A DNA stretch of 64,000 bases, taken from NCBI GenBank assembly GCA_041662245.1, contig JBAZSW010000003.1, positions 45,798 to 109,797 of the forward strand. The letters run 5' to 3'. Below the pieces are notes generated by a model that did no database searches, was not told where the DNA came from, and saw nothing but the letters and a program-made list of their open reading frames with translations. This document shows, in pieces, positions 7,900 through 48,565 of this stretch. How positions within the stretch are numbered: the stretch's first letter is position 1; each line of letters begins with the position of its first letter. This DNA is from Parcubacteria group bacterium (lineage in GTDB: Bacteria; Patescibacteriota; Minisyncoccia; Moranbacterales; UBA9337). The translations under genes were made by a program, and so were the position numbers.

Positions 7900-9240
7900 T
7901 TACTCGTATCGCAAAGCATCCAATGCATGGATAGTTGCTGCTCTTTTGGCTGGCATAATTCCTGTTACTAAGCCCAAAAATCCAATAAAACAAACCAAAG
8001 CTAAAATAAAATAACCAGGGATATAAATAAAATCAATCGGAGCCATGCCTCTTTTGGCCGAGAAAAAATTAAAAACAAGATTTATTAATTCCGCAAAACC
8101 ATAACCCCCTGCAAATCCTAAGGCTCCTCCGACAAAACTTATAATCGCCGCTTCAAAAACAAACATTCGAAAAATATCTATTCTTTTCGCGCCCAAGGCT
8201 TTTAAAATTCCTACCTCCTTGGTCCTTTGTAGCAAGGAAACACTAAGTGTGTTTAGCATCCCCATCGCTGAAATAGACATAATAATTGTCCCAAAAACTA
8301 TCAAAACCACTCTAATTACCAAGAAAAACATATTAATATCAGTAACCACATCCACCACACTCTCTGTTACGAATCCTAATATTTCTATATTTTTTCTAAT
8401 TTCTTCAATACTTTTTGTTTTCATATCCACCGTCGCTTTTCCTGTCTGAGCTAAATCTATTCCAAACTTATCCCGTAAAAAATCATAATAAAAATAAGCC
8501 ACCACACTATCTTCATTATCTGTAACTCCAATAACTTCAGCCTCATTATTATTGTTTTGAATTCCATCTCTTTTCCCTGAATTAGTTTCATCAGAAAGAA
8601 TTATATCAAAATTTACCTTTTTTCCAACAACGTCTTCTCCGTTACTAAAACCTAAAATACTGGCTAATTTTTTAGAAATAATTATTTTATTATTTCTATC
8701 CGGATCATCCATTTTCCCATATTTCATGTTGATATTGATCAACTTCAAAAAATTATCAGTAACTCCAAAGATAATTACATCTGTTTGAGATTCCTGATAA
8801 TAGACTTTTCCCCCCGTATTAACTTCTACGGCTATATCCACTACTCCAGGAATATTTTTTATTTTATTAACATTTTCTTTATTTAAAGACACGAAATTAT
8901 CCAAATTCCCATTATTAATATCAATAATATTTTCTGGATTATTCTTAGTCACCTCATTGATAACCATTTTTTGCATACCAAATCCAAGACAAATTAGAAA
9001 TGTAACCACTCCAATTCCAATAGCCACTCCCCCAATAGTTAAGAAAGAACGTAATTTATTAACAAAGATATTTCTATAACCAATTAAAACAATAGAAGCA
9101 ATGCTCATGCTTTTAATTTTGTATTTCTTAATTGGTTTTTTATTTTTATTGTTTAGAAAGCCCAACATTTTTTTGGCATTTATTTTAAATCTAATATAAA
9201 TTTTACTACAAATACCCAAAAAAAGAAACTCCCTTACCAA
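7900..9240 (-). CDS. MacB/FtsX-family ABC transporter permease with a large extracytoplasmic domain
   Basis: N-terminal TM (LRSFLTIGGVAIGIG), ~200-aa periplasmic domain, three C-terminal TMs of the FtsX type. The true start is probably internal (M at ~9168 or ~9108). Confidence 0.75.
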   Translation of the reverse strand: MVREFLFLGICSKIYIRFKINAKKMLGFLNNKNKKPIKKYKIKSMSIASIVLIGYRNIFVNKLRSFLTIGGVAIGIGVVTFLICLGFGMQKMVINEVTKNNPENIIDINNGNLDNFVSLNKENVNKIKNIPGVVDIAVEVNTGGKVYYQESQTDVIIFGVTDNFLKLININMKYGKMDDPDRNNKIIISKKLASILGFSNGEDVVGKKVNFDIILSDETNSGKRDGIQNNNNEAEVIGVTDNEDSVVAYFYYDFLRDKFGIDLAQTGKATVDMKTKSIEEIRKNIEILGFVTESVVDVVTDINMFFLVIRVVLIVFGTIIMSISAMGMLNTLSVSLLQRTKEVGILKALGAKRIDIFRMFVFEAAIISFVGGALGFAGGYGFAELINLVFNFFSAKRGMAPIDFIYIPGYFILALVCFIGFLGLVTGIMPAKRAATIHALDALRYE

Positions 9241-9267
9241 AAGAACTAATCAATTTAAATTTATAAG

Positions 9268-10317
9268 TTATCTATTATTCACCTCTTCATATATAATATT
9301 AGATACTCGGGATATAATTTTTGATAAATCTTCAAATTTTTCTCCTTTGGTCATAACACAGAGAAGATATGGCCTCTCTGAATGATAGATTATTCCACAA
9401 TCATGAAGTTGTCTTACTATTTTCTTATTTTCATCTAAATATTCTCTCTCTCCAAATTTATGTGAAACCATTGTTCCACTAGGAACGCCAGCTATCAAAC
9501 CGTTTCGATAATCAACCGCAGATAACAGTGTTAGTGCTTGCTCTGACATACTCCTATTTAAATAAGAAGAATTATATAAAATTCTAAAAAAGGAAGCATA
9601 ATCTTTGGTTGTGATTAAATTATTAGGATCATACAAATTTGGTGCGCTTAATCCTAAATCGCTAAAAACTATATTCAAATCATCCGTATTTATATTTTGA
9701 AATAAAAGATTGGCTGCCTCATTATCTGAATATACTATCATTGCCTCAATTAAAGATGCTACAGTATATTTTTTTCCCACCTCAAGACTATTAGCTGGTT
9801 TTACTTCTTGTTTGTAAAATTCTAAAGAAGGCTTATCAAACGATATTTCCTTGTTAAATATATCGTAATTCTTTTCCGCATATTTATAATAAGTAATCAT
9901 CAGCGGAACCTTGAATAGACTAGCCGGAGAATATTTTTCTTGTTCGTTTATTCCAAAAGCTGGTCCATTTTTCAAATCTCTATAATATACAGAAATAGTA
10001 GTACCAGAATTTTTTGCTATTATATCCTCTTGAATTGTTTTTTTTATTTTTAATTCAGATGATTTGAAAATAGGAGAAGTATTTTTTACCTCGCACTCTA
10101 AAAGCGGGTCTATAAATTTATAGCCCGATTGACGAATTTCTTTATTTTGTTCGACGTTTTTTTCATAATTTTTTGAATTTTTTAATTCAGATTTTTTTCC
10201 AAATAAAAATCCCAAATAAAAAAAGAACATTAATAAAACTAAAAAAATAAAGAACCAAAAATATTTATTTCCAAAAGAATAGCTAAAATTATTCTCATTT
10301 TCTTTTTTATTTTTCAT
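9268..10317 (-). CDS. class A beta-lactamase / PBP-like serine hydrolase, membrane anchored
   Basis: N-terminal TM. S-x-x-K (ASLFKVPL), S-D-N (YSDNEAANLL), K-F-G variant of KTG (HKFGERE). Confidence 0.45.
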   Translation of the reverse strand: MKNKKENENNFSYSFGNKYFWFFIFLVLLMFFFYLGFLFGKKSELKNSKNYEKNVEQNKEIRQSGYKFIDPLLECEVKNTSPIFKSSELKIKKTIQEDIIAKNSGTTISVYYRDLKNGPAFGINEQEKYSPASLFKVPLMITYYKYAEKNYDIFNKEISFDKPSLEFYKQEVKPANSLEVGKKYTVASLIEAMIVYSDNEAANLLFQNINTDDLNIVFSDLGLSAPNLYDPNNLITTKDYASFFRILYNSSYLNRSMSEQALTLLSAVDYRNGLIAGVPSGTMVSHKFGEREYLDENKKIVRQLHDCGIIYHSERPYLLCVMTKGEKFEDLSKIISRVSNIIYEEVNNR

Positions 10318-10409
10318 TTTTTCTCAAAAAAATTATTTGACTGCTAAACTCATTCTACTATCCAAATAAAATCCAGTCAAAAACTATTATGCCTTACTCT
10401 GAATTTAAT

Positions 10410-11183
10410 TTATTGAGCTATTTCACTGATATCCGTTTTAGCAATATTGTCCATACTATGTTTATTAACTTCATCTGATATTATTTTGCCATCTACCATT
10501 TTTATAATTCTTGAAGCAAATTTATATTGATCTTGATCGTGCGTAACCATTAAAATAGTAATATTGAATTTTCTATTTATTTCCTGAAGCAAAGCCAAAA
10601 GGGTATCTCCAGCTTTTTGGTCTAAGTTTCCTGTCGGTTCGTCAGCAATAATAAATTTAGGATTAAGCAAAAGCGAACGGGCTAACGCAATTCTTTGTTG
10701 TTGTCCTCCAGAGAGATCATAAGGACGATAGTCTGCCCATCTACTCATTCCCACCAATTCTATTAATTTAGCAGCTTTTTCTATGCCACTATGAAAGGAC
10801 TCTCCTGCAATAACAGCTGGAATAGCCATATTTTCTATTACCGTTAACGATTTAATCCAGAAAGTCTGTTGAGGAATAAATCCCACCTTCTCATTTCTAA
10901 ATTGAGCTCTCCAATTTTTACTATATGCCCAGATATCTTCATCATCTATAATTATTTTTCCTTCCGTGGGTTCCTCTAAGCCATAAATAGAATGAAGTAA
11001 AGTTGACTTGCCGCAGCCACTAGGGCCGACCAACATCACAAATTCCCCTTCATATATCTTGGCATCAATTCCAAAAAGAACTTGAATATTATTTTCGCCT
11101 ACACGAAAACTTTTTTTTATTCCTTTTATTTCTACGGCTACGTTTTTATTCTCTATTTTTTCCATATTCCTGACGACAACCAT
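10410..11183 (-). CDS. ABC transporter ATP-binding protein (MacB/LolD/FtsE-like)
   Basis: Walker A GPSGCGKST, ABC signature LSGGQQQRIALARSL, Walker B IIADEPT. The start overlaps the giant gene's stop by 31 nt. Confidence 0.85.
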   Translation of the reverse strand: MVVVRNMEKIENKNVAVEIKGIKKSFRVGENNIQVLFGIDAKIYEGEFVMLVGPSGCGKSTLLHSIYGLEEPTEGKIIIDDEDIWAYSKNWRAQFRNEKVGFIPQQTFWIKSLTVIENMAIPAVIAGESFHSGIEKAAKLIELVGMSRWADYRPYDLSGGQQQRIALARSLLLNPKFIIADEPTGNLDQKAGDTLLALLQEINRKFNITILMVTHDQDQYKFASRIIKMVDGKIISDEVNKHSMDNIAKTDISEIAQ

Positions 11184-14100
11184 CCGAATTGTTTAGTTGT
11201 TGTTCCAATTATTATTTCTGCCGCTGATGATTTAGCTCCTTCTACTATTATAGTAGAGACTTTTGAATTTGTCATATTTCCCGCCGCATCAAAAACTTCC
11301 ACCTGATAACTATACATCTGTCCCACTTCCGCAGGGATAGTTATTAAATGATAAGTGTTTAATGGATCCTCTCCTGTAGATTGATCAAATCCTGAAACAG
11401 CAGCCCCTTTAGTATATTTAATTTTTAACGTAGTTGTTTCATTCGTCTCTATCTTAACATACATATTAGCTTGAGCGCTGCTACCTCTTCCTAAAACTTT
11501 TCCGATAGCTCTATTGACTACTATTTCTGGCGGACGAGAATCAGATTTGGTAGTTATCTTCTGCTCCACAGATTCAACTTCAATTCCATTGGCATCTGTT
11601 CCTAAAATAGTTAAGGTATATTCTTTGGCGGGATCCAAACCATTTAACTCTGCGCTGTGTTCAGTAACTCTTTCTTCAGTTAAATAATTATGCGGAGAAG
11701 CTTCATCGGATGATTTAAAATATAAATGAGTAGTAGCAGGAACATTAGTTTTATATTGCACAGATACCGCCGGCAAATCAACATTTTCCACATTCTGTAT
11801 TTGAATATCCGTTGCCATTGGCTTAATCGGAGTAGCAAAACTATATTGATCAGAGTTGAAACTATTTAAATCTCCGTCTATACAAGATACCTGAGCTTGA
11901 TAACTAGTTTCAGCATTCAATCCTATGACTTTCTGAATATGAGCTGAAGCGCCACTAGTTTCCTCAATGGTATTAGAAAGACTTCCTGCTCCATATTTCA
12001 AAGTACAAGTGGCTGAAGTATTAGTTTTCCAAGAAACATAAGCCGAATCAAGCTTTATGTCAGTAACAGTAAATTCTGATACAACTGGAGGTGGCAACGT
12101 AGTAAAATTACCAACTTCCGATGTACCAATATTTCCATCAGGATCGATATATTTCACTTTATAAAAATATTTGGTGTCTGCACTTAAACCATTCACAATT
12201 ACTTCGTGATCTGTCACACTGTCTACTTGACCATTAGTTTCCCCTAATGAAATAGTTTTTCCATATTCTATAAAAGAACTGGCTACACGACTAGTTCCCC
12301 AATTAAAAGTAGCTACAAATGATTGCGTTTTTACTGTTGGCTTTTGAATTAGAGCAGGGGCGGTAGTATATCTACCTGTAGGAATAATAGTAACAATACT
12401 CGAAGCAATTGATAAATTATTAGTATTATCCTTAGCTTTAATATAATAATAATAAGGCTTACTTTCCAATTCAGTATCCACATAAGCTGTTCCTGAAGTT
12501 GTTGCCACACTAGTGTATACTCCTGCTAATTCTGTAGAACGATAAATTACATATCCTTCAAAATTATCACTGCTCGCTCCTACAGGAGGAGTCCATTTAG
12601 TAGCTACACTATATTCTGCATTTTCTCTATCGGAAGTATCAAATATCTGAACATTAACCGGAGCACCAGGAGCAGAAGTATCTGCAGTAAAATCAGCATA
12701 AGCATACAAGCTATAGTCAATATTTCCCGCCTCATCCATGGCTACTACATAAAATCTATTAGATCCTTTTTGAGTAGCAAATGGGCCAGGTCCAGCGAAA
12801 GTAGAAGTTGTTTCGGTAACATTATAAGCATTGGGCAAAGTGTTAACTGCATAATAATATTTGAGCTTAGTTGGCTCACCAATAAATGATAATGGTTGGT
12901 CCCAATCAAAAGCAAATGAATTACCGGTTGAATAAGCAGGGGTTACTGTTAAATTCTCTGGCGGACTTGGGGCACTCGCGCTAAAATAATATTCTTGACT
13001 AATAGGAGCAGAAATATTGCCAGCATTATCCACAACTCTCAAATAAAACCAATTTTTTCCCGACTGATAAGCTCCTGTGGTGTGCATCGCGTTAGGAATA
13101 GCAATTGAAACATCAGTAATATTAGGAATATCAAACCAAGTATCAGCAATGTCTCCACCAGTTCGATATTGAATTTTCTGCACTCCCGAGTGAGCATCCG
13201 AAACATTGTTTTCCCATAAAAAAGAATAATTATCTGCCGCAGTAAATCCCGCTGGGGTGACGGATATATCACTAGGATTATTTGGAGAAGTATTGTCCAA
13301 TCTATAATTAAAAGCATTAAATGATCCAGCCGGTATCATATCAGCATCATCTACAGATTTAATTAAAAGATAATAATTTTGACCAGAAACCATGCTACTG
13401 GCAACATAATTAGTAGTTGTTTGATAAGCACCATCAACAAAAGCATCTGCGCTAGCATTTGTCCCAAAATAAACCCAATAACCTTTAACTCCCGAACCGC
13501 CCACTCCATCGCTAGCTCCCCCCACTACTTCATCAGCAGGCCATTCGAAATATGGACTAGTATATCCATACCAAGAAGCTGTATTAATGGAAGTCACTTT
13601 ATCTACTGCGCTATAAGCACTAACTATAGTTGGATTACTCGGAGCCAAAACATCTTGATAATAATTTATCTTATAATCTGTGACTAGAGGAGAAAAAATT
13701 TGATCACCCGAAAACAAATCTATTTTTACTTGGATATATTCATTAGCTGGACTGACAATATCATAATTATAATGACCCGCACCAAAATCTTTTTCATTGG
13801 AAACTAAATCCCAAGCTGACCAATCGGTTTGGTTATCTGAAGTTCGAGTATAAATATTAACACTTGTTCCTGTTGGTTTTGTATAATTGATATCTAAATT
13901 GGCCCAACGATAAACTGAAAGCAAATCAATCGCCTGCGAAATATAATTCCCTCTTTTTTCAAAGGCTGTTCCGTTGGTTTCAGAACCCACCACATAGCTA
14001 TACAGACCGTCTGGGTATGAATTAGTTCCTGTTCCCACAGTCGACCAAATTCTATTACTCGCACTATCTCCTGCCCCTCCAGTATTTACTTGTCCAGGAA

Positions 14101-17100
14101 AATTGGCAATTGTTTCCCAAGTATTTCCAGAAATATTATAACGATAATAAGCATTGGTATTAAGTCCTCTAGTCAAATACAAATATCCATCTCCGCCATC
14201 AGTCAAAGATGAACCAATTCCAATTGTCGCCGGAGTATTAGCTCTTTGAAGCCAAGTGCCAGCTGTCACATCATAACGCCAGAAAGTAAGTTGACTTTGC
14301 CCTCGAGTGGAATAAATATAGCCATCTTTATAAATAATTTTTGATCCATCTCCTTGGTTCCAATTTACAATCGTGGGAAGTAGAGCCGACCAACGTGATC
14401 CAGCTACCGCCGTAGTATCATAACGCCACCAATTATTACTTCCCGCTGTTCCACGAGTTAAATAAATGTAACGACTACCGTCATAAGTCATACTTGAACC
14501 AGTTCCCGTTTGAAGCGGAATTCTATCAGTAGCAATAACCTCCCAACTATTTGATGAAATTGTATATTTCATAAAATAATTATTAATACTTCCTGTTCTA
14601 GTAGTTCTAATTGCTCCAGGAGTAAGGTAAATCGCTCCTTCATCTTCATTATAAACCATAGCCGAACCAGTAAATATCCCTACTGGAGTTTTGGCCAATT
14701 TCGTAAATTCACCAGTCTGATAATCATATTTTCCAAAAGTATTGTCACTGTTTCCTCTTACTATATAAATATTATTATTTTCATCTTTAGCCAAATTAGT
14801 TCCGGCGTTAAAGCCAAAACTACTTCCACCACCAATATCTGCTGGTCCAAAAAATCCTTTTTGAGGAACTTCCCAGGAATTTTCATCAATATTAAACTTA
14901 TAAAAAGCATTTGAAGCCTCTCCTCTGATTGCATAAATATATCCTCCTGCAGCCTTTAGTGATCCTCCATAACCCACATAAGCTGGAATCATCGGCAATT
15001 CTGTCCAAGTATTAGAAGTCACGCTATATTTAAAGAAATTCTGACGTTGTTTACCGCTTAACATATAAACTGCATCAGTGTCCTCATCGTAAGTTAAACT
15101 ACCTCCGTTATAAATTCCTACTGGGGCTTTCTCCAAAGTTGACCAATGTCCCGTGCCAGTAGAATATTTTGAAAAATAGGGATAATTATTTCCTTGTAAA
15201 GCATAAATTGTGTCATTTCCATCATAAGCGGTATAAGACCCTTCATAAACTCTTTGCCCATCACTTTCATTGGGATTACCAAACTCCGCATTTTCCAAAT
15301 TGCTCCACACATTATTTTGAGTATCATATCGATAAAAAGCATCGTCATTTCCAGGAAGACCATAGATATAGCGGCTACCATCATATTGCAATGATCCTCC
15401 ATAAGTAAATACTTTAGAGGCATTACTTACTGACTCCCAACTATTGCTTCCGATACTATAGCGCCAAAAATCCGATTGGTCAGCTCCTCTTGTGGCATAT
15501 AAATACCCTTCAGGACCAGCTACTAGAAAACTTCCATAATAGACTGTCAGAGGAGCAGGTTGCAAAGTCGTCCAAACATCAGTAGCAATATCATAAGAAT
15601 AAAAAATATTGGAATTATTTCCATTTAAAACATAGATTTTATTACTCGACTCTACATAAGCCATTCTAGATCCATAACGGAATCCGGCTGGAGCATAAGA
15701 CAATCTCTTTTCATTCCAAAAACCATTGATTGAATTTAGTCTAAATGACCCGTCACTTTTAACGCTTACCTTATCCAATGTGCCAGATTGAAAATCTGCT
15801 TCACTAGTTTTCTCTTCTGTTAAATAGGGAGACACTCCTGAATAGTTATAAGTAAAAGCACTCCAAACAGTATCACTTATATTACCATCATTATCTTCAG
15901 TTTTAATTCTAAGATAATAATTACCAGTTTGCATTGCCATGTTAACCAAATATTCTGGATTAACCGTATACGATCCCAAAATTTCTGGATCAGCTCCGCT
16001 ATCAGTCCCAAAATAAACCCAATATCCATCTATTCCAGAATCATTATCAATGGCATCATTCCAAGTGAAATATGGGTGAGCATGTTTATATTCATCTCCA
16101 CTTAGCAAAGTGTCCCCACTAACTCTTTGGGAATAACCATTTATAATGTTTGGATTATTAGGATCATTATCTTCGCTATTATAAGATATTGTAAAATCAT
16201 TAACTGTAGGAGTACTGATTCCATCAGATGAACTTAAAGTAAATTTAACTTGAATATATCGATTTTCTGGCGATTGTATATCCGTTCCACTGAGAGTTTC
16301 CCAACTTGACCAACTATCCCCATCACTGCTAGTTCGTGTTTCGGTAACAATCGAAGTATTAGCTGGAATATTTTGATTAATCGCCAAAGAAGTCCACGAT
16401 GAGACATAAGACAAATCCATTTCCTCACTGATATATGTTCCCGTGGCTAGATAGTTACTGGCTCCTAAAGTATAGCTCCAAACATCTACTAATCCAAATC
16501 CAGGGGTGGCTAAAAAAGAGTTATTACCCATATATTCAAAAGACGCTCCATTATATGGCCCTCTTTCATAAACATATTTTTGATTAGCTGGCAAAAGCCT
16601 CCATGAATTGGTGGCAATTGTATATTCCCATGTTTCATCTTTATAATAACCCGCTATTGCATAAATTTTGCCATTATAATATGCCATATCTGTTCCATAA
16701 CTTTGTGCAAAAGACGTTGAAGTTAATTCAGTCCAATTATTATCTAACACATTATAACGTAAGAAAGCCGTTTCTCCATCTCCGGGCATCATATAAAGAT
16801 TATTTCCATCTGATTCTAGACGACTTCCGATATAAGACATATAATTCGCTCCTCCCGTGATAGAAGCACTGGTCATAGTAGTCCAACTATTGCCAGCAAT
16901 ATTATATCGGTAAAGATTATTGGTTCCATTACCTCGAGTCACATAAATATATCCGTCGCTACTATTATAAGTTGCTGCGCTACCATAACCCAAAGTTCCA
17001 AGTCCTGTGGTGCTAGCTGTGCTCCAAGAATTTCCAGCTACATTATAAATATAAAAAGCGGTAGTGTTGTTCCCCAATGGAATATAAAAGTTACCGTTAT

Positions 17101-18586
17101 AAAAAGTGCCTTTCGTATCATAGCTAAAACTCACTGGCGCATTAGTTAGAGTTGTCCAAGTATTAGTGGTTATATCATAACGATAAAAACCGTTTGATCC
17201 TCCCCTTAAAGCATAGACATAAGCCCCCGCTCCCGTTACTTTATTCCAAATAAAATCACTACCTGTTCCCACCGTAGCCGGCAAATCAGCTGGTCCTACC
17301 CAAGTCCCTGTCGCTCCACTATTAGGGTTAAATTTCCACAAATTATACGTTGCTCCACCTCGAATCGCATAAATAAGATTATCTGTCGGATTAAAAGTCA
17401 AAGAGGACATGTTATTAGTTTGTGGTGAAGTTGCTAGAGTTGTCCAATTATTAGTTGCAATATTATATCTTATGAAAGTATTGGTAGTATTCGAAACTAA
17501 AAAGTAAATACAATTATTATAATAAACTCCTTTTTGCTCACCGCTAAGAGCTACTGGAGAAGCTGTCATTGCTGGAGCTGCCACCCAATTATTGGCTACA
17601 ATATTATAGCGATAAAAAGTTGTCGTTCCTGATCCCCGAGTAATATACATGTAGCCATTATTGCCATATACCATATCAGCTCCACTCGTTAAAGTAGCTG
17701 GAATTGGATTTATTCCATACCACATATTTTCACCAACATCAAATCTCCAAAAATCAGAAAATCCCTGTCCTCTAGTTACAAACATATCTGTTCCATCAAA
17801 TTCAATTGAAGCTCCCGTATAAACAGTATCCAAAAGATCGGGTAATTTAGTCCAAACTCTATCTTCAATATTATATTTATAAAATTCCTTGGAAAAACCT
17901 CCAAAAATAAAATAAATATTCCCTGCGCCATCATAAACTAAATCACAACCATAATGAGTAGCCTGAGGTAAATCTTCTAATATATCCCACTTGTTTTCAG
18001 CTACATTATAACGATAAAAAGATTTATCTGCATAGCCTCTAGTGGCATAAAGATAATTATTTACCATCACTGAAGATGAACCAAAAGAAACAGTGTCTGG
18101 AGTAGGAGCCCAAGTTCGAGCATTCCAAGTTCCATCTGATTTTAATTGAATTGCGTCTTGAGAGCTGGTAGTACTCACATTTTCCAAACTGCCATTTTCC
18201 CATTCTTTTTGAGTAGTTACACTTTTCGATTGCGGAGCACTTAATACACTGGCACTATTAGAAAAAACTACCGCTGCCATTATTATTATTGTTCCTATTC
18301 TAACCGAAGACCACCAAAAAAATTTAAAGAATATCTTTATTAATTTGGCCAGAAAATCAACAAATTTAAAAACTATTTTTCTTGTTCTATATTTTTTACC
18401 CAGGCTCTTATTGTTTTTTAGCTCATATTGAGATAAAAATTCAGTCAATGAACTCGCTCTAGTATTTTTTATTTCAGCAATTTCTTTATTTTTTATTCTT
18501 TTTTTAAATAAAAATGCAAAAAAACCTTTCTTTGAAGAATTCTTTTTAGATCGAATTATTTGTGTTTGTTTTTTGTTTTTTAACAT
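11153..18586 (-). CDS. giant (2477 aa) membrane-anchored surface protein: basic cytoplasmic tail, one TM, many Kelch-type beta-propeller blades, C-terminal FN3-like domains
   Basis: An uninterrupted 7.4-kb ORF. Dozens of F/Y-R-Y-N-x-x-x-N-x-W-T/S-x-L blade motifs. Four C-terminal FN3-like modules (e.g. YKVKYIDPDGNIGTSEVGNFTT). TM segment WWSSVRIGTIIIMAAVVF. Confidence 0.8.
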   Translation of the reverse strand: MLKNKKQTQIIRSKKNSSKKGFFAFLFKKRIKNKEIAEIKNTRASSLTEFLSQYELKNNKSLGKKYRTRKIVFKFVDFLAKLIKIFFKFFWWSSVRIGTIIIMAAVVFSNSASVLSAPQSKSVTTQKEWENGSLENVSTTSSQDAIQLKSDGTWNARTWAPTPDTVSFGSSSVMVNNYLYATRGYADKSFYRYNVAENKWDILEDLPQATHYGCDLVYDGAGNIYFIFGGFSKEFYKYNIEDRVWTKLPDLLDTVYTGASIEFDGTDMFVTRGQGFSDFWRFDVGENMWYGINPIPATLTSGADMVYGNNGYMYITRGSGTTTFYRYNIVANNWVAAPAMTASPVALSGEQKGVYYNNCIYFLVSNTTNTFIRYNIATNNWTTLATSPQTNNMSSLTFNPTDNLIYAIRGGATYNLWKFNPNSGATGTWVGPADLPATVGTGSDFIWNKVTGAGAYVYALRGGSNGFYRYDITTNTWTTLTNAPVSFSYDTKGTFYNGNFYIPLGNNTTAFYIYNVAGNSWSTASTTGLGTLGYGSAATYNSSDGYIYVTRGNGTNNLYRYNIAGNSWTTMTSASITGGANYMSYIGSRLESDGNNLYMMPGDGETAFLRYNVLDNNWTELTSTSFAQSYGTDMAYYNGKIYAIAGYYKDETWEYTIATNSWRLLPANQKYVYERGPYNGASFEYMGNNSFLATPGFGLVDVWSYTLGASNYLATGTYISEEMDLSYVSSWTSLAINQNIPANTSIVTETRTSSDGDSWSSWETLSGTDIQSPENRYIQVKFTLSSSDGISTPTVNDFTISYNSEDNDPNNPNIINGYSQRVSGDTLLSGDEYKHAHPYFTWNDAIDNDSGIDGYWVYFGTDSGADPEILGSYTVNPEYLVNMAMQTGNYYLRIKTEDNDGNISDTVWSAFTYNYSGVSPYLTEEKTSEADFQSGTLDKVSVKSDGSFRLNSINGFWNEKRLSYAPAGFRYGSRMAYVESSNKIYVLNGNNSNIFYSYDIATDVWTTLQPAPLTVYYGSFLVAGPEGYLYATRGADQSDFWRYSIGSNSWESVSNASKVFTYGGSLQYDGSRYIYGLPGNDDAFYRYDTQNNVWSNLENAEFGNPNESDGQRVYEGSYTAYDGNDTIYALQGNNYPYFSKYSTGTGHWSTLEKAPVGIYNGGSLTYDEDTDAVYMLSGKQRQNFFKYSVTSNTWTELPMIPAYVGYGGSLKAAGGYIYAIRGEASNAFYKFNIDENSWEVPQKGFFGPADIGGGSSFGFNAGTNLAKDENNNIYIVRGNSDNTFGKYDYQTGEFTKLAKTPVGIFTGSAMVYNEDEGAIYLTPGAIRTTRTGSINNYFMKYTISSNSWEVIATDRIPLQTGTGSSMTYDGSRYIYLTRGTAGSNNWWRYDTTAVAGSRWSALLPTIVNWNQGDGSKIIYKDGYIYSTRGQSQLTFWRYDVTAGTWLQRANTPATIGIGSSLTDGGDGYLYLTRGLNTNAYYRYNISGNTWETIANFPGQVNTGGAGDSASNRIWSTVGTGTNSYPDGLYSYVVGSETNGTAFEKRGNYISQAIDLLSVYRWANLDINYTKPTGTSVNIYTRTSDNQTDWSAWDLVSNEKDFGAGHYNYDIVSPANEYIQVKIDLFSGDQIFSPLVTDYKINYYQDVLAPSNPTIVSAYSAVDKVTSINTASWYGYTSPYFEWPADEVVGGASDGVGGSGVKGYWVYFGTNASADAFVDGAYQTTTNYVASSMVSGQNYYLLIKSVDDADMIPAGSFNAFNYRLDNTSPNNPSDISVTPAGFTAADNYSFLWENNVSDAHSGVQKIQYRTGGDIADTWFDIPNITDVSIAIPNAMHTTGAYQSGKNWFYLRVVDNAGNISAPISQEYYFSASAPSPPENLTVTPAYSTGNSFAFDWDQPLSFIGEPTKLKYYYAVNTLPNAYNVTETTSTFAGPGPFATQKGSNRFYVVAMDEAGNIDYSLYAYADFTADTSAPGAPVNVQIFDTSDRENAEYSVATKWTPPVGASSDNFEGYVIYRSTELAGVYTSVATTSGTAYVDTELESKPYYYYIKAKDNTNNLSIASSIVTIIPTGRYTTAPALIQKPTVKTQSFVATFNWGTSRVASSFIEYGKTISLGETNGQVDSVTDHEVIVNGLSADTKYFYKVKYIDPDGNIGTSEVGNFTTLPPPVVSEFTVTDIKLDSAYVSWKTNTSATCTLKYGAGSLSNTIEETSGASAHIQKVIGLNAETSYQAQVSCIDGDLNSFNSDQYSFATPIKPMATDIQIQNVENVDLPAVSVQYKTNVPATTHLYFKSSDEASPHNYLTEERVTEHSAELNGLDPAKEYTLTILGTDANGIEVESVEQKITTKSDSRPPEIVVNRAIGKVLGRGSSAQANMYVKIETNETTTLKIKYTKGAAVSGFDQSTGEDPLNTYHLITIPAEVGQMYSYQVEVFDAAGNMTNSKVSTIIVEGAKSSAAEIIIGTTTKQFGWLSSGIWKK

Positions 18587-18628
18587 TCTTATTTAAGATA
18601 TTATTTTAATATCCTCAAAATATTGCTT

Positions 18629-18826
18629 TTAGCTATATAATCGAGACATTTCGCTCACTAATCTTTTCATTTTTTCTACATCATATTTACTATAGATTCT
18701 CCATCCTCGACTATCTCTCCTAGGCGCGCCTATTCTACCTTCTTTTTCCCAACGGAAAATAGTCGACTTATCTCGGTCGATTATCTTAGAAACATCTTTT
18801 ACATAATAAATATCTTCAAATATCAT
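18629..18826 (-). CDS. excisionase/MerR-family helix-turn-helix DNA-binding protein (65 aa from an internal Met)
   Basis: YYVKDVSKIIDRDKSTIFRWEKEGRIGAPRRDSRGWRIYSKYDVEKM matches the HTH_17/Xis-type pattern (..STIYRWIKEG..P..GRWRI....L). Sits 42 nt upstream of the giant gene. Confidence 0.5.
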   Translation of the reverse strand: MIFEDIYYVKDVSKIIDRDKSTIFRWEKEGRIGAPRRDSRGWRIYSKYDVEKMKRLVSEMSRLYS

Positions 18827-18988
18827 CTTTTTAAACTTAGGTACCCATATAAGTATATCCACTATAGGTACTATATGTATGCTAGCCAAATAAAAAAGCG
18901 AACTGCCGGAAATCGGCACTTCACCCTACTACATGCTTATTATAGCACACAATCACTACTCAGTCAAAAAACATCTTCTATCCCCAAG

Positions 18989-19008
18989 TTATCCACAGTT
19001 AATTAACA
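18989..19008 (+). promoter_or_regulatory. TTATCCACAGTTAATTAACA: perfect DnaA-box 9-mer within a 20-nt motif shared with 51028-51047
   Basis: Direct reading of the sequence. Minus-strand reading is TGTTAA-N5-TGTGGATAA. Confidence 0.3.
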
Positions 19009-19268: not shown

Positions 19269-19272
19269 ATTT

Positions 19273-20025
19273 TTATTTATTTATTTTTCCCCAATTAATA
19301 TTCCAAGGATCAGTCTTTCTCTTTGGCGCAATTTGATTGTGTCCCAGAATATAGCTTATCTCATATTTATTTTCCAGATATGCTATTAAATCATTTACTG
19401 CCACATATTGCTCTGAAGTAAATTCATCTTCTTCTATATTCATTAATTCTACTCCAATAGAAAAATTATTTACTCCCGTTCTTCCATCAGGCATCCTACT
19501 CTCTCCGGCATGATAGGCGATATTTTCATCCTTAACCAATCTAAATATTTCTCCTTTTCTATCAATTACATAATGTGGAGCTACTCCATATTCTTTATAT
19601 TCTAAGATAAGTTTTTCTAAACTATATTTATCTCCACCTAAGGCATTATAAGAAGAATGTAAAATGACAGTATCTATTTTCCTTCCATTAGAATAATCAA
19701 ATCCCCAAGATACCAATTTATCCTTTATTGCTAGACTATTTTTTAAATCTTTTTTAATTTCTGGCTTTATTTCTTCTTCTACCGAAATACCATCTGAATT
19801 TTCATTCTCAATAACTTCACTTTCCGCAACCGGTTTTTGAATATTGTTTTCAACTTCAACCACGGATAATTTTTCTTTGGGTTCTTTATCTTCTTTCAAG
19901 GGGACTTCCAAGGATTTGTTTTCATAAAGTAGGGCTTTCTGAGGAATTTTTAAATAAAAAAATCCCCACCAAGCCAAAGCCAGGGCAAGGATTAAAACTA
20001 AAATTGAACCTATTTTTATTTTCAC
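19273..20025 (-). CDS. N-acetylmuramoyl-L-alanine amidase (Amidase_2/PGRP fold), membrane anchored
   Basis: N-terminal TM. IDTVILHSS...YHAG...GVELMN...LGHNQIAPKRKTDP. Confidence 0.75.
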   Translation of the reverse strand: MKIKIGSILVLILALALAWWGFFYLKIPQKALLYENKSLEVPLKEDKEPKEKLSVVEVENNIQKPVAESEVIENENSDGISVEEEIKPEIKKDLKNSLAIKDKLVSWGFDYSNGRKIDTVILHSSYNALGGDKYSLEKLILEYKEYGVAPHYVIDRKGEIFRLVKDENIAYHAGESRMPDGRTGVNNFSIGVELMNIEEDEFTSEQYVAVNDLIAYLENKYEISYILGHNQIAPKRKTDPWNINWGKINK

Positions 20026-20091
20026 ATTTTTTATTTAAGTCAAGCTTTTGCACATTATAACCGCTTCATTTTTTAAAAAATTTGGTGTTTT

Positions 20092-20409: not shown

Positions 20410-20412
20410 TTT

Positions 20413-21129: not shown

Positions 21130-21160
21130 CTTTATTAATATTTACTAGCAACTGTTTCAG

Positions 21161-21193
21161 GACACAGAACCTATCATATCAAAGACACAGACC
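21161..21193. promoter_or_regulatory. direct repeat GACACAGAaCC ...(N11)... GACACAGAcCC, 32-64 nt upstream of the paralog-1 start
   Basis: Seen in the sequence. Start-to-start spacing is 22 nt (two helical turns). Confidence 0.3.
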
Positions 21194-28131: not shown

Positions 28132-29136
28132 TTAAAGAACCCTTTTGATTTTTTGAATTAATCGATAACTCCAATATTTAATTGGATTAATAATAATATC
28201 ATAACTACCAGAAAATTCAACTGGCTGATTATTTTGTGAGAAGCCTCGTTTAAATCTAGTTACTCCCGCCCATTTCAACTCCCTCTCTTTATTTTCCTCA
28301 CCAATGCTTACTCCACCAAAATCATACCTTAAAGCACCTCTTTTTTTTGCTTCCTTTATCATTTCCCACTGCAAAAGAAAGGGAGCCATTACATTCTTAT
28401 TCTCATCATCTGATGCCCCATGCAAATAGGTAGCTGTTTCTCCATAAATAACCAGTAGTGCCCCTGCAATAACTACCCCCCTATAAGTAGCCAAGCATAA
28501 CTTCAAATTATCTCCAGAAATAGCACCCAACATCTCTCGATAATATATTTTAGGATGAAAACTGATATTTTTTCTATTTCCGGTTTTTTCAATTAAATTT
28601 AAAAAATCTTCCACTTTTTTATCATCAGGCCTCAAACCATTTAGTATTTCTATTTGAACTCCTTTTTTATTTGCTAATTTTATATTATATCTTGTCTTGG
28701 GTTTCATTTCAGATAAAATATCTTCCTCGTTTTTGTTTATATCAATAACAAAAATTTGTTTAGGCTGCATATCATGAGGAGCCTTAGCTATCTCATATTT
28801 TTTATTTTTTAATGAATTTTTTATTTTTTTATCAAAATTATCTATTCTAACCCAAGCAACCTTTTTGATTTTTGCTAAATTCATCAAATCCTCCATGACC
28901 CTGCCTAATTCTTCTTCCTTAATATCCTTATCGCTTATTGGACCACGAGGAACATAAAAATATTTTCCTATCAAAGGAAGCTGGTGTTCCAAAATATTTG
29001 ACCAGAATTTTTTATCTGATATATTATAATTTTTTATTCCAAATTTATTTTGAAAATTCATCCATTGATTAGATTGCAAAAATCCTCCATAAGGAGAATT
29101 TCTTTGGATAAATTCATCTCTATTGTTATTTAGCAT
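28132..29136 (-). CDS. FemAB-family peptidoglycan interpeptide-bridge aminoacyltransferase
   Basis: GGFLQSNQWMNFQNKFG N-terminus typical of FemABX. 334 aa. Confidence 0.6.
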   Translation of the reverse strand: MLNNNRDEFIQRNSPYGGFLQSNQWMNFQNKFGIKNYNISDKKFWSNILEHQLPLIGKYFYVPRGPISDKDIKEEELGRVMEDLMNLAKIKKVAWVRIDNFDKKIKNSLKNKKYEIAKAPHDMQPKQIFVIDINKNEEDILSEMKPKTRYNIKLANKKGVQIEILNGLRPDDKKVEDFLNLIEKTGNRKNISFHPKIYYREMLGAISGDNLKLCLATYRGVVIAGALLVIYGETATYLHGASDDENKNVMAPFLLQWEMIKEAKKRGALRYDFGGVSIGEENKERELKWAGVTRFKRGFSQNNQPVEFSGSYDIIINPIKYWSYRLIQKIKRVL

Positions 29137-35483: not shown

Positions 35484-35485
35484 CA

Positions 35486-42284: not shown

Positions 42285-44090
42285 CTAATTTTCTAATTCT
42301 TTCTTTGCCTCCTCTATTTCCAAAAGTTGTCTTGGATCAGAAGTAATAATCTGATCTTCACTGTAGGAAGCCACTACCTTTATCGCAGCGTGCTTATTGC
42401 CCGCAAAAAATATCCCCTCTCCCACATTGCTTTCCAACAATAAAAACTTTTCTTGATCAGTTAAAAAGAATGTTTCTTGAACTATATCAATAGCCGCCGT
42501 AGATTGCTTTAATAAAAACTGAGTGGAAGCATTGGTTACAATCGGTTTTCCATAACGAGAAGTCATAAAATCATTAACATCCTGAGTAATCGTGGTTAAT
42601 CCTGTATAATATTTTCTACATCTTTTAGCTATTCCAAAAAGAAAAGAAGCGGCATCTTCATGTTGCATCATTATCCAAGCCTCATCCACCACCACCAAAC
42701 GCCTTTTTATTTTTGATCGCATTTGATTCCAAATAAATTGCAACACTACATACATAGCAATTGGACGCAATTCCTCTTCCAGATCACGAATGTTAAAAAC
42801 TACCAACTGTTTATCCGTTTTTATATTAGTATGCTCATTCAAAAATCCAGAGAATATTCCTTCGGTATATCTTTCTAATTTAATTGCCAATGATTTGGCT
42901 CCGTCCATATTTCTTAAAACCTCATAGAGATCTGACATGGTTGGAAATTGATTTAACTCAATTAAAGAAAAATTAGTTTGTTCTGTAATATCTCGCACAG
43001 CATAAGTTTCTCGAATAGCATTATCTAATATAGAATTTTCTTCAGGAGTAAGATTTCCCAACATTATTCTTAAAAGTCCTACCAAATTAGCAATTGAATT
43101 TCTCAAGATATCAGAAGAATCTTCATCTTCTGATGCACTCGGTAAATCAAAAGGATTGAGGTGATATTTGGAATTAAGTGCTATTTTTATAAAACTGCCT
43201 CCTACTGTATCAGATAAATGCTTGTATTCATTTTCTGGATCAATTATTATTACATCCACTCCCATCATCATTGATCGAAGTATCTCCAGCTTAACGGCAT
43301 AACTTTTTCCTGCTCCACTTTTTGCGAAAACCACCATATTAGCATTTTCCATTTCAAATCGATCAAATAAAATCAAACTATTATTATGACGATTGATTCC
43401 ATATAATACTCCCGAGTTGGAAGATAGTTCCGCTGAAACAAATGGAAAAATAGTAGAAAGGGGCGAGGTGTTTAAATTGTTAGCAACGTCCAATCTGTCT
43501 TCATTCAATGGAATAGTAGAAGCTAGTCCATCTTCCATTCTAAAACTGGCTGGCTTGGCATAAACCATTTGCGCTTCCAATATAGCCTCAATACTATGAT
43601 GAACTCTGTTTAAATCCTTGGTGCTTTCTCCAAATATTGTTATATAAATCCCTACTCGAAAAAATCTTTCTGTTCCTTCTTGTAACCTCGTTCGTAATTC
43701 TTCTGTATTTTCCAAAGCAGACTCCAACATAGGATTCCTTACTTTTCCATCTTGAGCTTCTAAATTTATTCGAGACTGAATTTGAGTAGTAGTTTTCAGA
43801 AGTCCTTTCAATACTTTATTGCTATCCATAGGATGGATAAATATTGAAATATTTATTGGATGATCAATATTAATTATAGAAGAAAACCAATTGACGCTTA
43901 AAAACCTAGGAAAAGCCATAACAAAAATGGTTTTCGCAAAAGTTTCCCCAATTTCCAAATAGCTTGGCGCAACTCTAAAAGCCGCGGGTGAGATTAAATC
44001 TTTTATTACCGCCAAACCCTTTCGATACTCGTCCTCCTTGGCGATAACAGGGTCTATCGGTCGATTTCTATTTCTGTTATTTAAAAACAT
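42285..44090 (-). CDS. VirB4/TrbE/CagE-family type IV secretion ATPase (ATPase core)
   Basis: Walker A VFAKSGAGKSYAV, Walker B LVVVDEAWIMM. 601 aa. Confidence 0.75.
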   Translation of the reverse strand: MFLNNRNRNRPIDPVIAKEDEYRKGLAVIKDLISPAAFRVAPSYLEIGETFAKTIFVMAFPRFLSVNWFSSIINIDHPINISIFIHPMDSNKVLKGLLKTTTQIQSRINLEAQDGKVRNPMLESALENTEELRTRLQEGTERFFRVGIYITIFGESTKDLNRVHHSIEAILEAQMVYAKPASFRMEDGLASTIPLNEDRLDVANNLNTSPLSTIFPFVSAELSSNSGVLYGINRHNNSLILFDRFEMENANMVVFAKSGAGKSYAVKLEILRSMMMGVDVIIIDPENEYKHLSDTVGGSFIKIALNSKYHLNPFDLPSASEDEDSSDILRNSIANLVGLLRIMLGNLTPEENSILDNAIRETYAVRDITEQTNFSLIELNQFPTMSDLYEVLRNMDGAKSLAIKLERYTEGIFSGFLNEHTNIKTDKQLVVFNIRDLEEELRPIAMYVVLQFIWNQMRSKIKRRLVVVDEAWIMMQHEDAASFLFGIAKRCRKYYTGLTTITQDVNDFMTSRYGKPIVTNASTQFLLKQSTAAIDIVQETFFLTDQEKFLLLESNVGEGIFFAGNKHAAIKVVASYSEDQIITSDPRQLLEIEEAKKELEN

Positions 44091-46630: not shown

Positions 46631-48565
46631 CTAAGCCCACATTCCGGCACCTTGTCCTTGCATATATTTGTCTCCTCTCATTTCACTAGTGAGTTTAGCT
46701 CTAGCACTAGGTGAATATCCATTAATGACATCCGTAGCACCACCCACAACACCACTTTTTCCAGGTATTGAAGCTGTCGCTACGATTCTTTCAATGTTCT
46801 GCTCCTTCCAATCATTCGTGTTTAATTTTGCAAATTCTTTTTTGGCTATATCAAAAGCAGCCCCTCCCGTTGCTCCAGTTCTTACTATCTCTTCGTTTAT
46901 TATTAAATCAACATTCTTTTTTCTTACGTTGCTTTCGAATAAATTTTTATAAACATCATTATCCCCAAGAACAGTCAATCCTTCTTGATATTGCTTAAGT
47001 GCTTTATCGGGATCTTTATCAAAACCTTTTGTTTCTGCTCTATGAAGAGCTAATGCCATTTTTTCAGCTTTGCTTCCGCTACTATCTATTCTATTTGTTT
47101 CAGCGTCACTTATTCCACTTCCTTCCTTATACTTCTTTAGATTCTCTTGAACTAGTTTTTCATTAGCACCCTTAACTCCAAGAAAATCTGCAGATTGAGT
47201 TTTTCTTGTAGTTGAAGCTGTTTTATAATTCTCACCCCAGCTATCCCATTTCGCTTTGAGTCCTCCTATGCCTCCAGAAATTCTATGTCCTGTCATTGTA
47301 TCAACACCCTTCCCTGCTAACCCCACTGTTCCCCAAGCTGCTTTTTGTCCATAAGATTTAATATTATTTCCTACTTTTTTTGCCATACCCATCGCCATCT
47401 CAGATCCCATTCCTCCCATTTTTTGAGAAATAGTTAATCCCATCCAAAGAAAAATAACTCCAATAATATGTATCGGTATCTCAGTTCCTGCTACATTAGT
47501 ACTACTACTCAATGTTCCTTTACTAAATAGAACCATCGTTATTAATAAAAAGAATGCCAATACCGGACCCATAAAAGCATACTTCAATAATTTATCCCAC
47601 CAGTCATTTGATATACTACTAGTCCCAGGAAAAAATGCGAACACAAAGCCAAAGGGTGATAATATTACCAAAACGATAAAAGCTATCATTCTTATTAATA
47701 AATTTATTGCCAAAGCCATTATTGTGACAGTGTAAATAAATAAAAGAACGATGCTAACAATTATTTGCCCTGTTGTATTTCCTGATGTAAAAGATGCTTC
47801 ATTATATTGATTTTTTAAAGTATCTCCAAATTTTAAAACTTTACCTATGTAAGCAGAAGAACTGGCGCTACTGCTATTTGGGAAAGCAACTTCCACTAAA
47901 AATCTCATTGCTGAATTAGAAAAATCCACTACGAATACTGCGATGGCATAACTAAAATTGACCAATAGCGCCATCACTACCAACATTATAATTATTTTTT
48001 TAAGATTATATTTTTCTACCTGAAAAATCGTACAAAAAGCAGAAAATAATAACAATAGCATAAAAAACAGATTTAATATGTCCCTTACTGCTGCCCACAG
48101 TTTGTAAACACTTCCTTCTTTAATCAAGTCTCCTAAATAATCTGTATTGAGAGCAAAATCCAGCAATTGTGCTGCTATAATTAATAATTTTGAAATCGCC
48201 CATAACACACTGTAAAGTAACCAATTAAAAACCCACAATGATCCTCCTTTTGCCACCGACGAAACACTAACACCCACAGAATTAAGTGCATTTTTTCCAG
48301 CTAAAAATGTACTTCCACCAGGAACTGCCATTAGCATTGAAGAAGTTTTTAGTCTTGATGCTATATCATCTATCCAATCAGCTTTTGCAGAAATGCCTAT
48401 TTTACTATTTGTGAAATTAATATTTAAAATCATAACTCCCAAAATCAAAAACAAACCTATTTTGCCGAAGGCTTTTTTGGATGGATTTTTTAGTGAGTTT
48501 TTTATCCTATTAAATAAATTATCTACAAACTTAATAGGACTATTCCCATTTTTTTTCATTATCAA
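46631..48565 (-). CDS. VirB6/TrbL-like polytopic membrane protein with long Gly-rich C-terminal extension
   Basis: ~7-8 TM helices in the first 400 aa. 644 aa. Confidence 0.45.
   Translation of the reverse strand: MIMKKNGNSPIKFVDNLFNRIKNSLKNPSKKAFGKIGLFLILGVMILNINFTNSKIGISAKADWIDDIASRLKTSSMLMAVPGGSTFLAGKNALNSVGVSVSSVAKGGSLWVFNWLLYSVLWAISKLLIIAAQLLDFALNTDYLGDLIKEGSVYKLWAAVRDILNLFFMLLLLFSAFCTIFQVEKYNLKKIIIMLVVMALLVNFSYAIAVFVVDFSNSAMRFLVEVAFPNSSSASSSAYIGKVLKFGDTLKNQYNEASFTSGNTTGQIIVSIVLLFIYTVTIMALAINLLIRMIAFIVLVILSPFGFVFAFFPGTSSISNDWWDKLLKYAFMGPVLAFFLLITMVLFSKGTLSSSTNVAGTEIPIHIIGVIFLWMGLTISQKMGGMGSEMAMGMAKKVGNNIKSYGQKAAWGTVGLAGKGVDTMTGHRISGGIGGLKAKWDSWGENYKTASTTRKTQSADFLGVKGANEKLVQENLKKYKEGSGISDAETNRIDSSGSKAEKMALALHRAETKGFDKDPDKALKQYQEGLTVLGDNDVYKNLFESNVRKKNVDLIINEEIVRTGATGGAAFDIAKKEFAKLNTNDWKEQNIERIVATASIPGKSGVVGGATDVINGYSPSARAKLTSEMRGDKYMQGQGAGMWA

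Follow-up and report, generated by a model that had tools for sequence, protein, structure and literature searches.

A predicted three-gene module of a giant Kelch/FN3 surface protein and a type VII ABC pair, conserved across Patescibacteria

ATP-binding cassette (ABC) transporters of type VII, such as MacB, LolCDE and FtsEX, lack a substrate channel through the membrane and exert their effect on partners or substrates that lie outside it, ATP-driven movement being passed to an outer domain. MacAB-TolC and LolCDE act on substrates that are already outside the cytoplasm, LolCDE, HrtBA and MacB take theirs from the outer leaflet or the periplasm, and the partner genes of FtsEX (EnvC, PcsB, RipC, CwlO) often lie nearby. 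[quoted passage not shown] Here, we describe a locus in a stretch of 64,000 nucleotides (nt) from a Parcubacteria group bacterium (assembly GCA_041662245.1, contig JBAZSW010000003.1), this whole stretch being hereafter designated as the window. Judging from sequence comparisons, the window carries one copy of a three-gene module that is conserved across Patescibacteria and consists of a giant Kelch and fibronectin type III (FN3) surface protein, an ABC ATPase and a permease. The genes of the locus are as follows:

11153..18586, minus strand: giant surface protein (2477 amino acids (aa), 273 kDa, ectodomain pI 4.5)
10410..11165, minus strand: ABC ATPase (251 aa from a conserved Met; the open reading frame (ORF) to 11183 gives 257 aa)
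9268..10317, minus strand: serine hydrolase of the Beta-lactamase2 family, PBP-A-like and membrane-anchored (Pfam Beta-lactamase2, E=3e-38)
7900..9168, minus strand: type VII ABC permease with MacB_PCD and FtsX domains (422 aa; ORF from TTG 9240)
18629..18862, minus strand: MerR-type gene encoding a helix-turn-helix domain only (77 aa in the public gene call; Pfam MerR_1, E=4e-8)

The first four ORFs had been recognised in an earlier reading made from the DNA letters alone (the sequence-only reading) and were all found as described, on the minus strand, in the ORF list, the translations and the Pfam results. The end coordinate which that reading gave to the locus, 18826, reaches into the separate MerR-like gene upstream.

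ORFs were called in 77 GTDB species-representative loci, of which 68 hold the C-terminus of the giant together with downstream DNA. The ABC ATPase is the next gene on the same strand in 67 of these 68 assessable loci, and a MacB_PCD/FtsX permease then follows. The gap between the giant and the ATPase genes ranges from -56 to +103 nt, with a wider spacing of about 400 nt in eight loci that have an intervening ORF of 135 aa, and the junction between ATPase and permease is frequently a 4-nt overlap. The sole exception (locus L064) carries a second large ORF with DUF2341, LamG and FN3 domains between the giant and the ABC pair, and this intervening ORF ends in the same C-terminal tail as the giant. 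The proposal of the sequence-only reading that the giant and the ABC genes form one unit is thus upheld by their synteny in relatives across CPR lineages, and we regard it as highly probable that the ABC pair functionally serves the giant protein. No description of this giant family or of the three-gene module was found in the literature searched: the giant proteins of the Patescibacterium danicum paper are of another, non-conserved FhaB type, and papers on giant proteins of CPR or Omnitrophota deal with other, poorly conserved proteins.

Two variations on this gene order were observed. The 135-aa ORF has an N-terminal transmembrane (TM) segment and an FN3-like part, overlaps its neighbours by 4 nt on both sides (e.g., L050, 17101-17508), and was also found in L062, L063, L065, L069, L070, L072 and L077, all from one Microgenomates-like subclade that has the longest permeases of the set (about 850 aa). 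In L065, the ATPase and the permease are fused into one ORF of 1126 aa (17456-20836), as in MacB, which could be a genuine fusion or the effect of an assembly error or frameshift.

Database searches revealed that the giant belongs to a family with a broad distribution. Full-length homologues in a collection of 5.8 billion proteins measure 2366-2672 aa and share 38-83% identity over 95-100% of the query, the window copy itself being 100% identical to a protein of a Parcubacteria-group metagenome-assembled genome, and 424 giant stretches were confirmed in GTDB with one genome per species, a number that is a lower bound, the scan relying on three exact peptide patterns. Record titles include Moranbacteria, Parcubacteria, Woesebacteria, Shapirobacteria, Roizmanbacteria, Levyibacteriota, Pacebacteria, Berkelbacteria and others. 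Several records are labelled as non-CPR organisms (Gammaproteobacteria, Bdellovibrionales and others); because their giants are 51-89% identical to those of CPR-labelled metagenome-assembled genomes, we treated these labels as errors and not as a spread beyond CPR. Conservation is even along the whole ectodomain, the cytoplasmic tail alone being variable. Across loci, identity to the window copy is closely correlated between giant and ATPase (r=0.91) and between giant and permease (r=0.90), with mean identities of 46.7% for the giant, 56.5% for the ATPase and 44.0% for the permease. As far as these identities indicate, the giant evolves as slowly as its membrane partner. The sequence-only reading had taken the giant as a candidate for an adhesin or for host contact. 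Such an even, slow and transporter-matched divergence would argue against a fast-evolving, host-specific adhesin, although it is still compatible with a conserved host ligand.

The family can be divided into two clades that differ at both the giant and the permease. Clade A (at least 43% identity to the window copy) is Moranbacteria/Parcubacteria-like; the cytoplasmic tail of its giants is long and basic, Ser/Gly-Ala-Pro comes immediately behind their TM segment, and its permeases measure 376-462 aa. Clade B (at most 41% identity) is Microgenomates-like; its giants have a short, classical signal peptide that looks cleavable, with AxA-like sites, and its permeases measure 650-865 aa, with the exception of L046 and L051 (about 400 aa). 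The extra length of clade B permeases is an insertion within the extracytoplasmic MacB_PCD domain. This co-variation of anchoring and permease length would fit a physical link between the way the giant is anchored and the outer domain of the permease.

The window copy of the giant can be divided into the following regions:

18302..18586, minus strand: basic cytoplasmic N-terminal tail, residues 1-95 (26 K/R against 5 D/E)
18239..18301, minus strand: single TM segment or signal-anchor, about residues 96-116 (hydrophobic segment about 97-115, hydropathy peak at 97)
16466..18073, minus strand: Kelch block 1, 12 four-stranded blades, about residues 172-707 (Pfam, motif count, AlphaFold2)
15842..16444, minus strand: jelly-roll beta-sandwich, then an FN3-like domain, about residues 715-915 (secondary structure in the AlphaFold2 model)
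13967..15664, minus strand: Kelch block 2, about 12 blades, about residues 975-1540 (blade motifs and Pfam)
11237..13954, minus strand: second jelly-roll and about nine FN3/Ig-like beta-sandwich domains, about residues 1545-2450 (AlphaFold2, Foldseek)
11156..12415, minus strand: C-terminal cassette, residues 2058-2477 (phmmer)
11168..11224, minus strand: terminal amphipathic helix, residues 2455-2473 (AlphaFold2, a helix at low pLDDT)

Charge count and hydropathy agree with the sequence-only reading in giving the giant a basic cytoplasmic tail of about 95 aa, a single TM segment and a type-II-like topology. The tail contains a juxtamembrane motif conserved in clade A, F[LF]xxY[EQ][LV]xxxxS[LYF]G[KR] (FLSQYELKNNKSLGK at residues 50-64 of the window copy); with a strict regular expression, it was detected in 28 of 73 clade-A homologues versus none of 47 from clade B.

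The ectodomain contains beta-propeller repeats. Pfam gave Kelch_6 at E=3e-42 (141.5 bits, cut-off 25.3) and Kelch_1 to Kelch_4 above their cut-offs; fn3 was borderline and below cut-off (24.2 versus 25 bits). The blade motif F-Y-R-Y-[DN]...N-x-W has 12 occurrences between residues 190 and 707 and about 12 more between 995 and 1535, the second set comprising motifs at 995, 1040, 1084, 1184, 1228, 1386, 1435 and 1480 as well as degenerate ones, with a Pfam Kelch_3 match at 1465-1498. An AlphaFold2 model of residues 118-925, built with 31 homologues, reached a mean predicted local distance difference test score (pLDDT) of 92.6 and a predicted TM-score (pTM) of 0.80, and shows 12 four-stranded blades, a jelly-roll and an FN3-like domain in that order. 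Its best fold matches in the PDB, as searched with Foldseek, are the tandem propellers of LRP6, of the BT4663 sensor domain and of AIP1, and the six-bladed Kelch domains of KLHL12 and KEAP1 match block 1 with a TM-score, normalised to the target, of about 0.7. The propeller fold read from the letters alone is therefore predicted with high confidence. The same reading had suggested perhaps five or more propellers, which is too many, since 12 + 12 blades point to about four. The 24 blades probably form four six-bladed propellers in two tandem pairs, the 6 + 6 split being drawn from the blade counts and the tandem-propeller matches and not from coordinates. The C-terminal part (residues 1625-2477) was modelled with a pLDDT of 86.9 and the low pTM expected for beads on a string, and matched strings of FN3/Ig domains in Foldseek. 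Tandem beta-propellers followed by Ig/FN3 domains also occur in LRP6, the BT4663 sensor domain and ROS1/Sevenless; this likeness to the giant is at the level of fold alone (8-17% identity), and thus no common function can be deduced from it.

Several known routes of surface display were considered for the giant and set aside. The C-terminus (...AAEIIIGTTTKQFGWLSSGIWKK) contains no LPXTG followed by a hydrophobic stretch and a basic tail, nor any hydrophobic run of TM length, which rejects LPXTG sortase anchoring. No lipobox Cys follows the hydrophobic segment in the translation. A type I secretion substrate was likewise rejected, as the protein has an N-terminal signal-anchor and as RTX repeats and ABC_membrane gave no Pfam matches. 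The RTX adhesins of type I secretion systems (LapA with LapBCE) resemble the window module in pairing a giant repetitive surface protein with an ABC transporter of its own, encoded alongside, and in having the link within a conserved C-terminal element. In contrast to the window module, those systems use fused six-TM exporters with an adaptor and an outer-membrane protein, and their substrates have neither the N-terminal signal-anchor of the window giant nor the signal peptide of its relatives, the giant in turn being devoid of RTX repeats.

The last ~410 residues of the giant form an FN3-like cassette that ends in a conserved amphipathic helix (...FGW...) bearing a hydrophobic stripe. Its tail motif, A-x-[END]-phi-phi-x-x-[TN]-[FL]-x-x-x-F-G-[WF]-[LI] followed by 4-8 residues to the end, was found in 116 of 118 full-length homologues. 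A phmmer search with the last 420 residues against 1.84 billion cluster representatives returned 844 matches at E<=1e-30, many of which are other large FN3-rich proteins of about 500-6300 aa without Kelch repeats. In many of the matches, the alignment spans nearly the entire query and ends at the C-terminus of the target with the same type of tail, the strict tail pattern being present in at least 52 of the top 150. Four non-Kelch cassette proteins were checked (762, 1017, 2003 and 3517 aa): all four have an ABC_tran gene directly downstream, and MacB_PCD/FtsX comes next wherever the contig continues. A metagenome scan seeded with a non-Kelch cassette found the ABC pair downstream in 14 of 22 assessable loci. 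Cassette and transporter thus appear, from these neighbourhoods, to be linked, with exceptions. Within the window, no further ORF bears the tail. On this basis, we tentatively suggest, while holding it doubtful, that the cassette and its '...F-G-W...' helix might be an undescribed sorting or anchoring signal read by a dedicated type VII ABC pair. If true, very large surface proteins of CPR bacteria would be mounted or powered via a new route of the Sec-plus-MacB type, of which the Kelch giant would be the best-conserved cargo and, possibly, a core structure of the envelope or of host capture in these ultra-small cells.

The two ABC proteins display the features of a type VII ABC transporter. 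The motifs of the ATPase are intact (Walker A GPSGCGKST, signature LSGGQQQR, Walker B IIADEPT, H-loop THD; ABC_tran, E=8e-34). The permease has four TM peaks at 43, 281, 335 and 387, the first two being separated by an extracytoplasmic domain of about 220 aa, and Pfam matches to MacB_PCD (73.3 bits, E=4e-20, cut-off 27) and FtsX (70.1 bits, E=2e-19, cut-off 25.5). Among solved chains, YtrF of Bacillus subtilis is the closest to it (9o9x_C, E=3e-26 along the full length) and MacB and LolF/LolC come next, and orthologues at 50% identity or more bear CPR names where they are named. Pfam, solved-chain matches and hydropathy thus agree with the sequence-only reading on a transporter of the MacB/FtsX (type VII) kind with a large extracytoplasmic domain. 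In NCBIfam, the ATPase scored best against LolD, DevA and MacB, and the permease against ADOP, MacB and LolC/E; every one of these scores fell far below the cut-off. Three named systems were rejected in this way: the FtsEX division system (FtsX models 23.9-29.8 bits versus cut-offs of 225-255; FtsE TIGR02673 165 versus 264.85), LolCDE (TIGR02212 68.4 versus 362 and TIGR02211 211.6 versus 307.75, together with the missing lipobox) and MacAB-TolC (MacB equivalog 73 bits for the permease and 181 bits for the ATPase versus a cut-off of 966, together with the missing adaptor gene and with ATPase and permease genes that are separate in the window). By these scores, the pair belongs to the type VII ABC superfamily and not to FtsEX, LolCDE or MacAB as such. 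The analogy with FtsEX and its partners EnvC, PcsB and RipC, drawn when the letters alone had been read, holds at the superfamily level; a closer kinship does not, the nearest relatives being YtrF and MacB and the NCBIfam FtsX cut-offs being missed by far.

Among described systems, YtrEF of B. subtilis (PDB 9o9x) is similar in having separate genes for an ATPase and a four-TM MacB_PCD permease, in a monoderm and without an adaptor. In contrast, the ytrGABCDEF operon has no giant surface protein, and similarity to the window pair is at the family level only. We know of no established partner or substrate of YtrEF. The literature links YtrEF to cell-wall thickness and cell-wall stress. FtsEX shares the type VII fold and has an outer domain, moved by ATP hydrolysis in the cytoplasm, that grips a helical element of an outside partner. 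Unlike FtsX, the window permease has MacB_PCD and fails the NCBIfam FtsX models, and the place of a coiled-coil hydrolase activator is taken by a conserved Kelch/FN3 protein of 273 kDa that has one terminal helix; no coiled-coil M23 or CHAP gene of the EnvC/PcsB/RipC/CwlO type adjoins the ABC pair. MacAB-TolC and LolCDE have permeases of the same family, and the ATPase-permease fusion of L065 recalls MacB; they differ from the window module, in which there is no adaptor gene and no lipobox in the giant, and all equivalog cut-offs are missed. We take the module to be a type VII ABC system with a probable extracytoplasmic partner, the giant.

This kinship also raises the question of whether the pair is an ordinary MacB- or YtrEF-type efflux or antimicrobial-peptide resistance pump that stands next to the giant by inherited gene order. 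Public annotations do name these permeases 'ABC-type antimicrobial peptide transport system', and YtrF, the nearest solved relative, comes from an operon induced by cell-wall antibiotics, according to PMC12772383. However, against a gene order that is otherwise poorly kept between these lineages, 67 of 68 loci retain the triad, and their stop and start codons overlap. The pairing also recurs with unrelated cargo architectures that have just the C-terminal cassette in common, and no adaptor gene lies in the neighbourhood, a Pfam search of the neighbouring genes having found no membrane fusion protein of the HlyD/BSH type. We therefore consider an ordinary pump highly improbable.

We propose instead that the pair is a type VII mechanotransmitter dedicated to the giant through the C-terminal cassette, a docking-and-motor version of its service to which we give even chances. 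In such a mechanism, the giant would be exported by Sec and, in the clade of the window, retained at the membrane by an N-terminal signal-anchor that stays uncleaved. The permease dimer would use its extracytoplasmic domain to bind the conserved cassette and helix, and ATP hydrolysis in the cytoplasm would be converted into movement outside the membrane, by which a propeller/FN3 fibre of about 270 kDa may be held, deployed or moved at the surface. The propellers may bind a glycan of the cell's own envelope or the surface of a host. No substrate would cross the bilayer through the ABC pair, and the ATPase would be translationally coupled to the giant gene. The PBP-A-like hydrolase would be an accessory cell-wall enzyme that joined the operon in the lineage of the window.

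The same components could also act as a Lol-like extractor, in which, once Sec has exported the giant, the helix or the signal-anchor, lying in the outer leaflet, is pulled out by the permease with ATP and the giant is freed into the wall or a surface layer; tail-bearing proteins, as a class, would in this way undergo a second step of secretion. LolD is the best-scoring model for the ATPase (211.6 bits, under the cut-off), LolC/LolF and MacB are among the matches of the permease, a hydrophobic stripe runs along the tail helix, and the cassette is common to many different cargo proteins, as expected of a sorting signal. Yet each cargo has its own adjacent and coupled ABC pair (1:1, or 2:1 in L064), and such dedicated pairing is more usual in stoichiometric complexes than where many cargoes share one sorting machine. 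The clade-A cytoplasmic motif and the Pro after the TM segment argue for a permanent N-terminal anchoring, and the giant has no lipobox Cys. Release by extraction thus seems to us rather unlikely, but it is the foremost rival of the docked motor.

Several observations weigh against the proposed dedication of a docked motor to the giant. The sequence cannot separate stable docking from one-off release, and the terminal helix was modelled at low confidence in AlphaFold2. Co-transcription of the triad is drawn from the gene overlaps alone, the promoter and terminator scans being uninformative. The co-variation of anchoring and permease length involves essentially two clades and may be a phylogenetic coincidence. 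Finally, 8 of the 22 non-Kelch tail loci, all of one subfamily, have a TPR gene instead and no ABC pair within 2-6 kb downstream, the downstream DNA being the only part in view.

The TPR protein of that subfamily is about 210 aa long (L100, 6555-7205; L103, 6389-7012; L127, 6388-7029), and the large proteins upstream have tails of the type ...IIANFEQTFGWM... A bla-like gene lies 1.7 kb beyond the TPR gene in L127 and an AcrB-type RND pump gene is found nearby in L103; this TPR-type subfamily is possibly outside CPR.

The serine hydrolase encoded between the ATPase and the permease had been read as class-A beta-lactamase-like. Its S133-L-F-K136, S197-D-N199 and K287-F-G motifs are indeed present in an alignment with CPR homologues and TEM-1, the latter sequence having been entered by hand. 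In this alignment, Phe stands opposite TEM Glu166 and Gly opposite Asn170, and the stretch immediately ahead of the omega loop is short of about 15 residues. The protein scores 85.5 bits against bla_class_A (cut-off 200) and matches PBP-A Tll2115 (PDB 2j9o) at E=2e-8 over residues 93-291. The likeness in SxxK, SDN and KFG therefore stands, the class-A deacylation residues do not, and the protein is best described as PBP-A-like; a true class A beta-lactamase was rejected, since the Glu166/Asn170 pair is absent and the family threshold is missed. PBP-A itself lacks Glu166. Compared with PBP-A/Tll2115 of Thermosynechococcus, the window hydrolase has the same SxxK, SDN and K-x-G triad without the Glu166 general base, but differs by its N-terminal TM anchor, by K-F-G in place of K-T-G and by CPR-specific Cys/His motifs (QLHDCG). 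The family is very large in CPR (more than 5000 matches), and some CPR class-A-like proteins were reported to have weak beta-lactamase and RNase activity in vitro (PMC9145738). With its hydrolase devoid of deacylation residues and placed among cell-wall genes, the window illustrates that 'beta-lactamase' calls in CPR resistome surveys need care.

The position of this gene had led the sequence-only reading to suggest that the ABC module controls or exports the hydrolase, as an FtsEX-like mechanotransducer would, with the giant as a co-operonic adhesin. The hydrolase gene does sit between the ATPase and the permease genes in two lineages, that of the window (with L001) and that of L085. Bla-like genes also occur near the module in six further GTDB loci, upstream of the MerR or the giant gene (L042, L074, L078) or downstream on the other strand (L062, L068, L079), as well as upstream in L002/L003 and L006/L007, and an Amidase_2 gene is found nearby in the Moranbacteria-like clade. 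However, none of the 68 assessable GTDB loci, close relatives included, has a hydrolase gene between ATPase and permease; in L008, L015 and L033, whose giants are 71-78% identical, the permease directly follows the ATPase. Bla homologues lie about 10 kb off in L004/L005 and are unlinked to the module in L087. The spacer between the ATPase and bla genes holds a promoter-like site that fits an inserted gene, such sites being common in the AT-rich DNA of this locus. The permease reaches 24-30 bits against FtsX model cut-offs of 225-255, and the hydrolase has its own N-terminal TM anchor and no coiled-coil partner domain. Judging from these loci, the hydrolase gene is a late, lineage-specific insertion, an accessory with a recurrent but loose association. 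The hydrolase as the object of the ABC module is thus weakly supported, its position varying among loci and its gene being no core member, and we find such control improbable. Its recurrence near the module leaves a loose cell-wall link for the hydrolase, as suggested by these gene neighbourhoods.

For the module as proposed here, conservation over its whole length across deep CPR lineages and the tie to an ABC pair of its own make the 270-kDa protein a strong candidate for a core structure of the envelope or of cell contact. It would add giant propeller/FN3 fibres, recognised via the C-terminal cassette, as a new kind of partner for mechanotransmission of the MacB/FtsX kind. The tail peptide, the outer domain of the permease and ATPase-dead mutants offer handles on this system.

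Start codons could be refined at two genes. An overlap of the giant and ATPase genes had been noted at 31 nt; the overlap is real, and it probably measures 13 nt. ATG 11183 falls within the Gly-Trp codons (ttc gGA TGG) of the invariant FGW motif of the giant, and ATG 11165 corresponds to a Met conserved among ATPase homologues at which the public gene call also starts, making it the probable start of the ATPase. The FGW codons create an out-of-frame ATG between 11165 and 11183, with ATG, TTG or GTG there in relatives, and longest-ORF callers thus overextend the ATPase by six codons. For the permease, ATG 9168 (422 aa) is probably the start rather than TTG 9240, because its homologues measure 419-423 aa.

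The MerR-type gene lies directly upstream of the giant in 14 related loci; in the Moranbacteria-like clade, it may be the first gene of the unit or its regulator. Upstream of it is the region's best promoter-like site (18967..18939); a scan of the region for promoters and terminators gave no more sites than shuffled sequence. The window has about 31% G+C and a uniformly negative GC skew, and contains no tRNA genes or Rfam families over its whole length. The giant gene stands out with a G+C content of 0.36-0.37 (12001-18000) versus 0.30-0.31 in its flanks, which probably reflects a composition rich in Gly, Thr, Ser and Tyr rather than a foreign origin, because close relatives have the same gene context.

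In the Moranbacteria-like clade alone, a block upstream of the MerR gene (18999-22414) is conserved along with the module. Together with other genes of the window, its features are:

18999-22414: block with an 89-aa ORF, an Amidase_2 gene (19273..20025), a rhodanese gene and unannotated ORFs of 238 and 337 aa
22437..24215: PilB-type ATPase gene, after the Moranbacteria-like block
28132..29136: FemAB-family gene
42285..44090, minus strand: TraG/VirB4-type P-loop ATPase
46631..48565, minus strand: TrbL/VirB6-like membrane protein
49713..50789, minus strand: LysM+CHAP wall hydrolase
51205..52122, plus strand: XerC/phage-integrase-type recombinase
60579..61994: polysaccharide flippase-like gene

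The window also encodes three Wzy_C paralogues (O-antigen-ligase-like membrane proteins) at 34161-36778 and 57621-58910, two of which lie side by side. With this trio and the flippase-like and FemAB genes, cell-envelope functions take up much of the window. At 36758-40816 are two adjacent ORFs of 972 and 372 aa without a Pfam match, in a region of slightly raised G+C (0.366 at 38-40 kb). Between 41500 and 52200, a conjugation-like set of type IV secretion genes lies beside the XerC/phage-integrase-type recombinase gene; the type IV secretion system of Patescibacteria was described, in a preprint, as resembling monoderm conjugation machinery.

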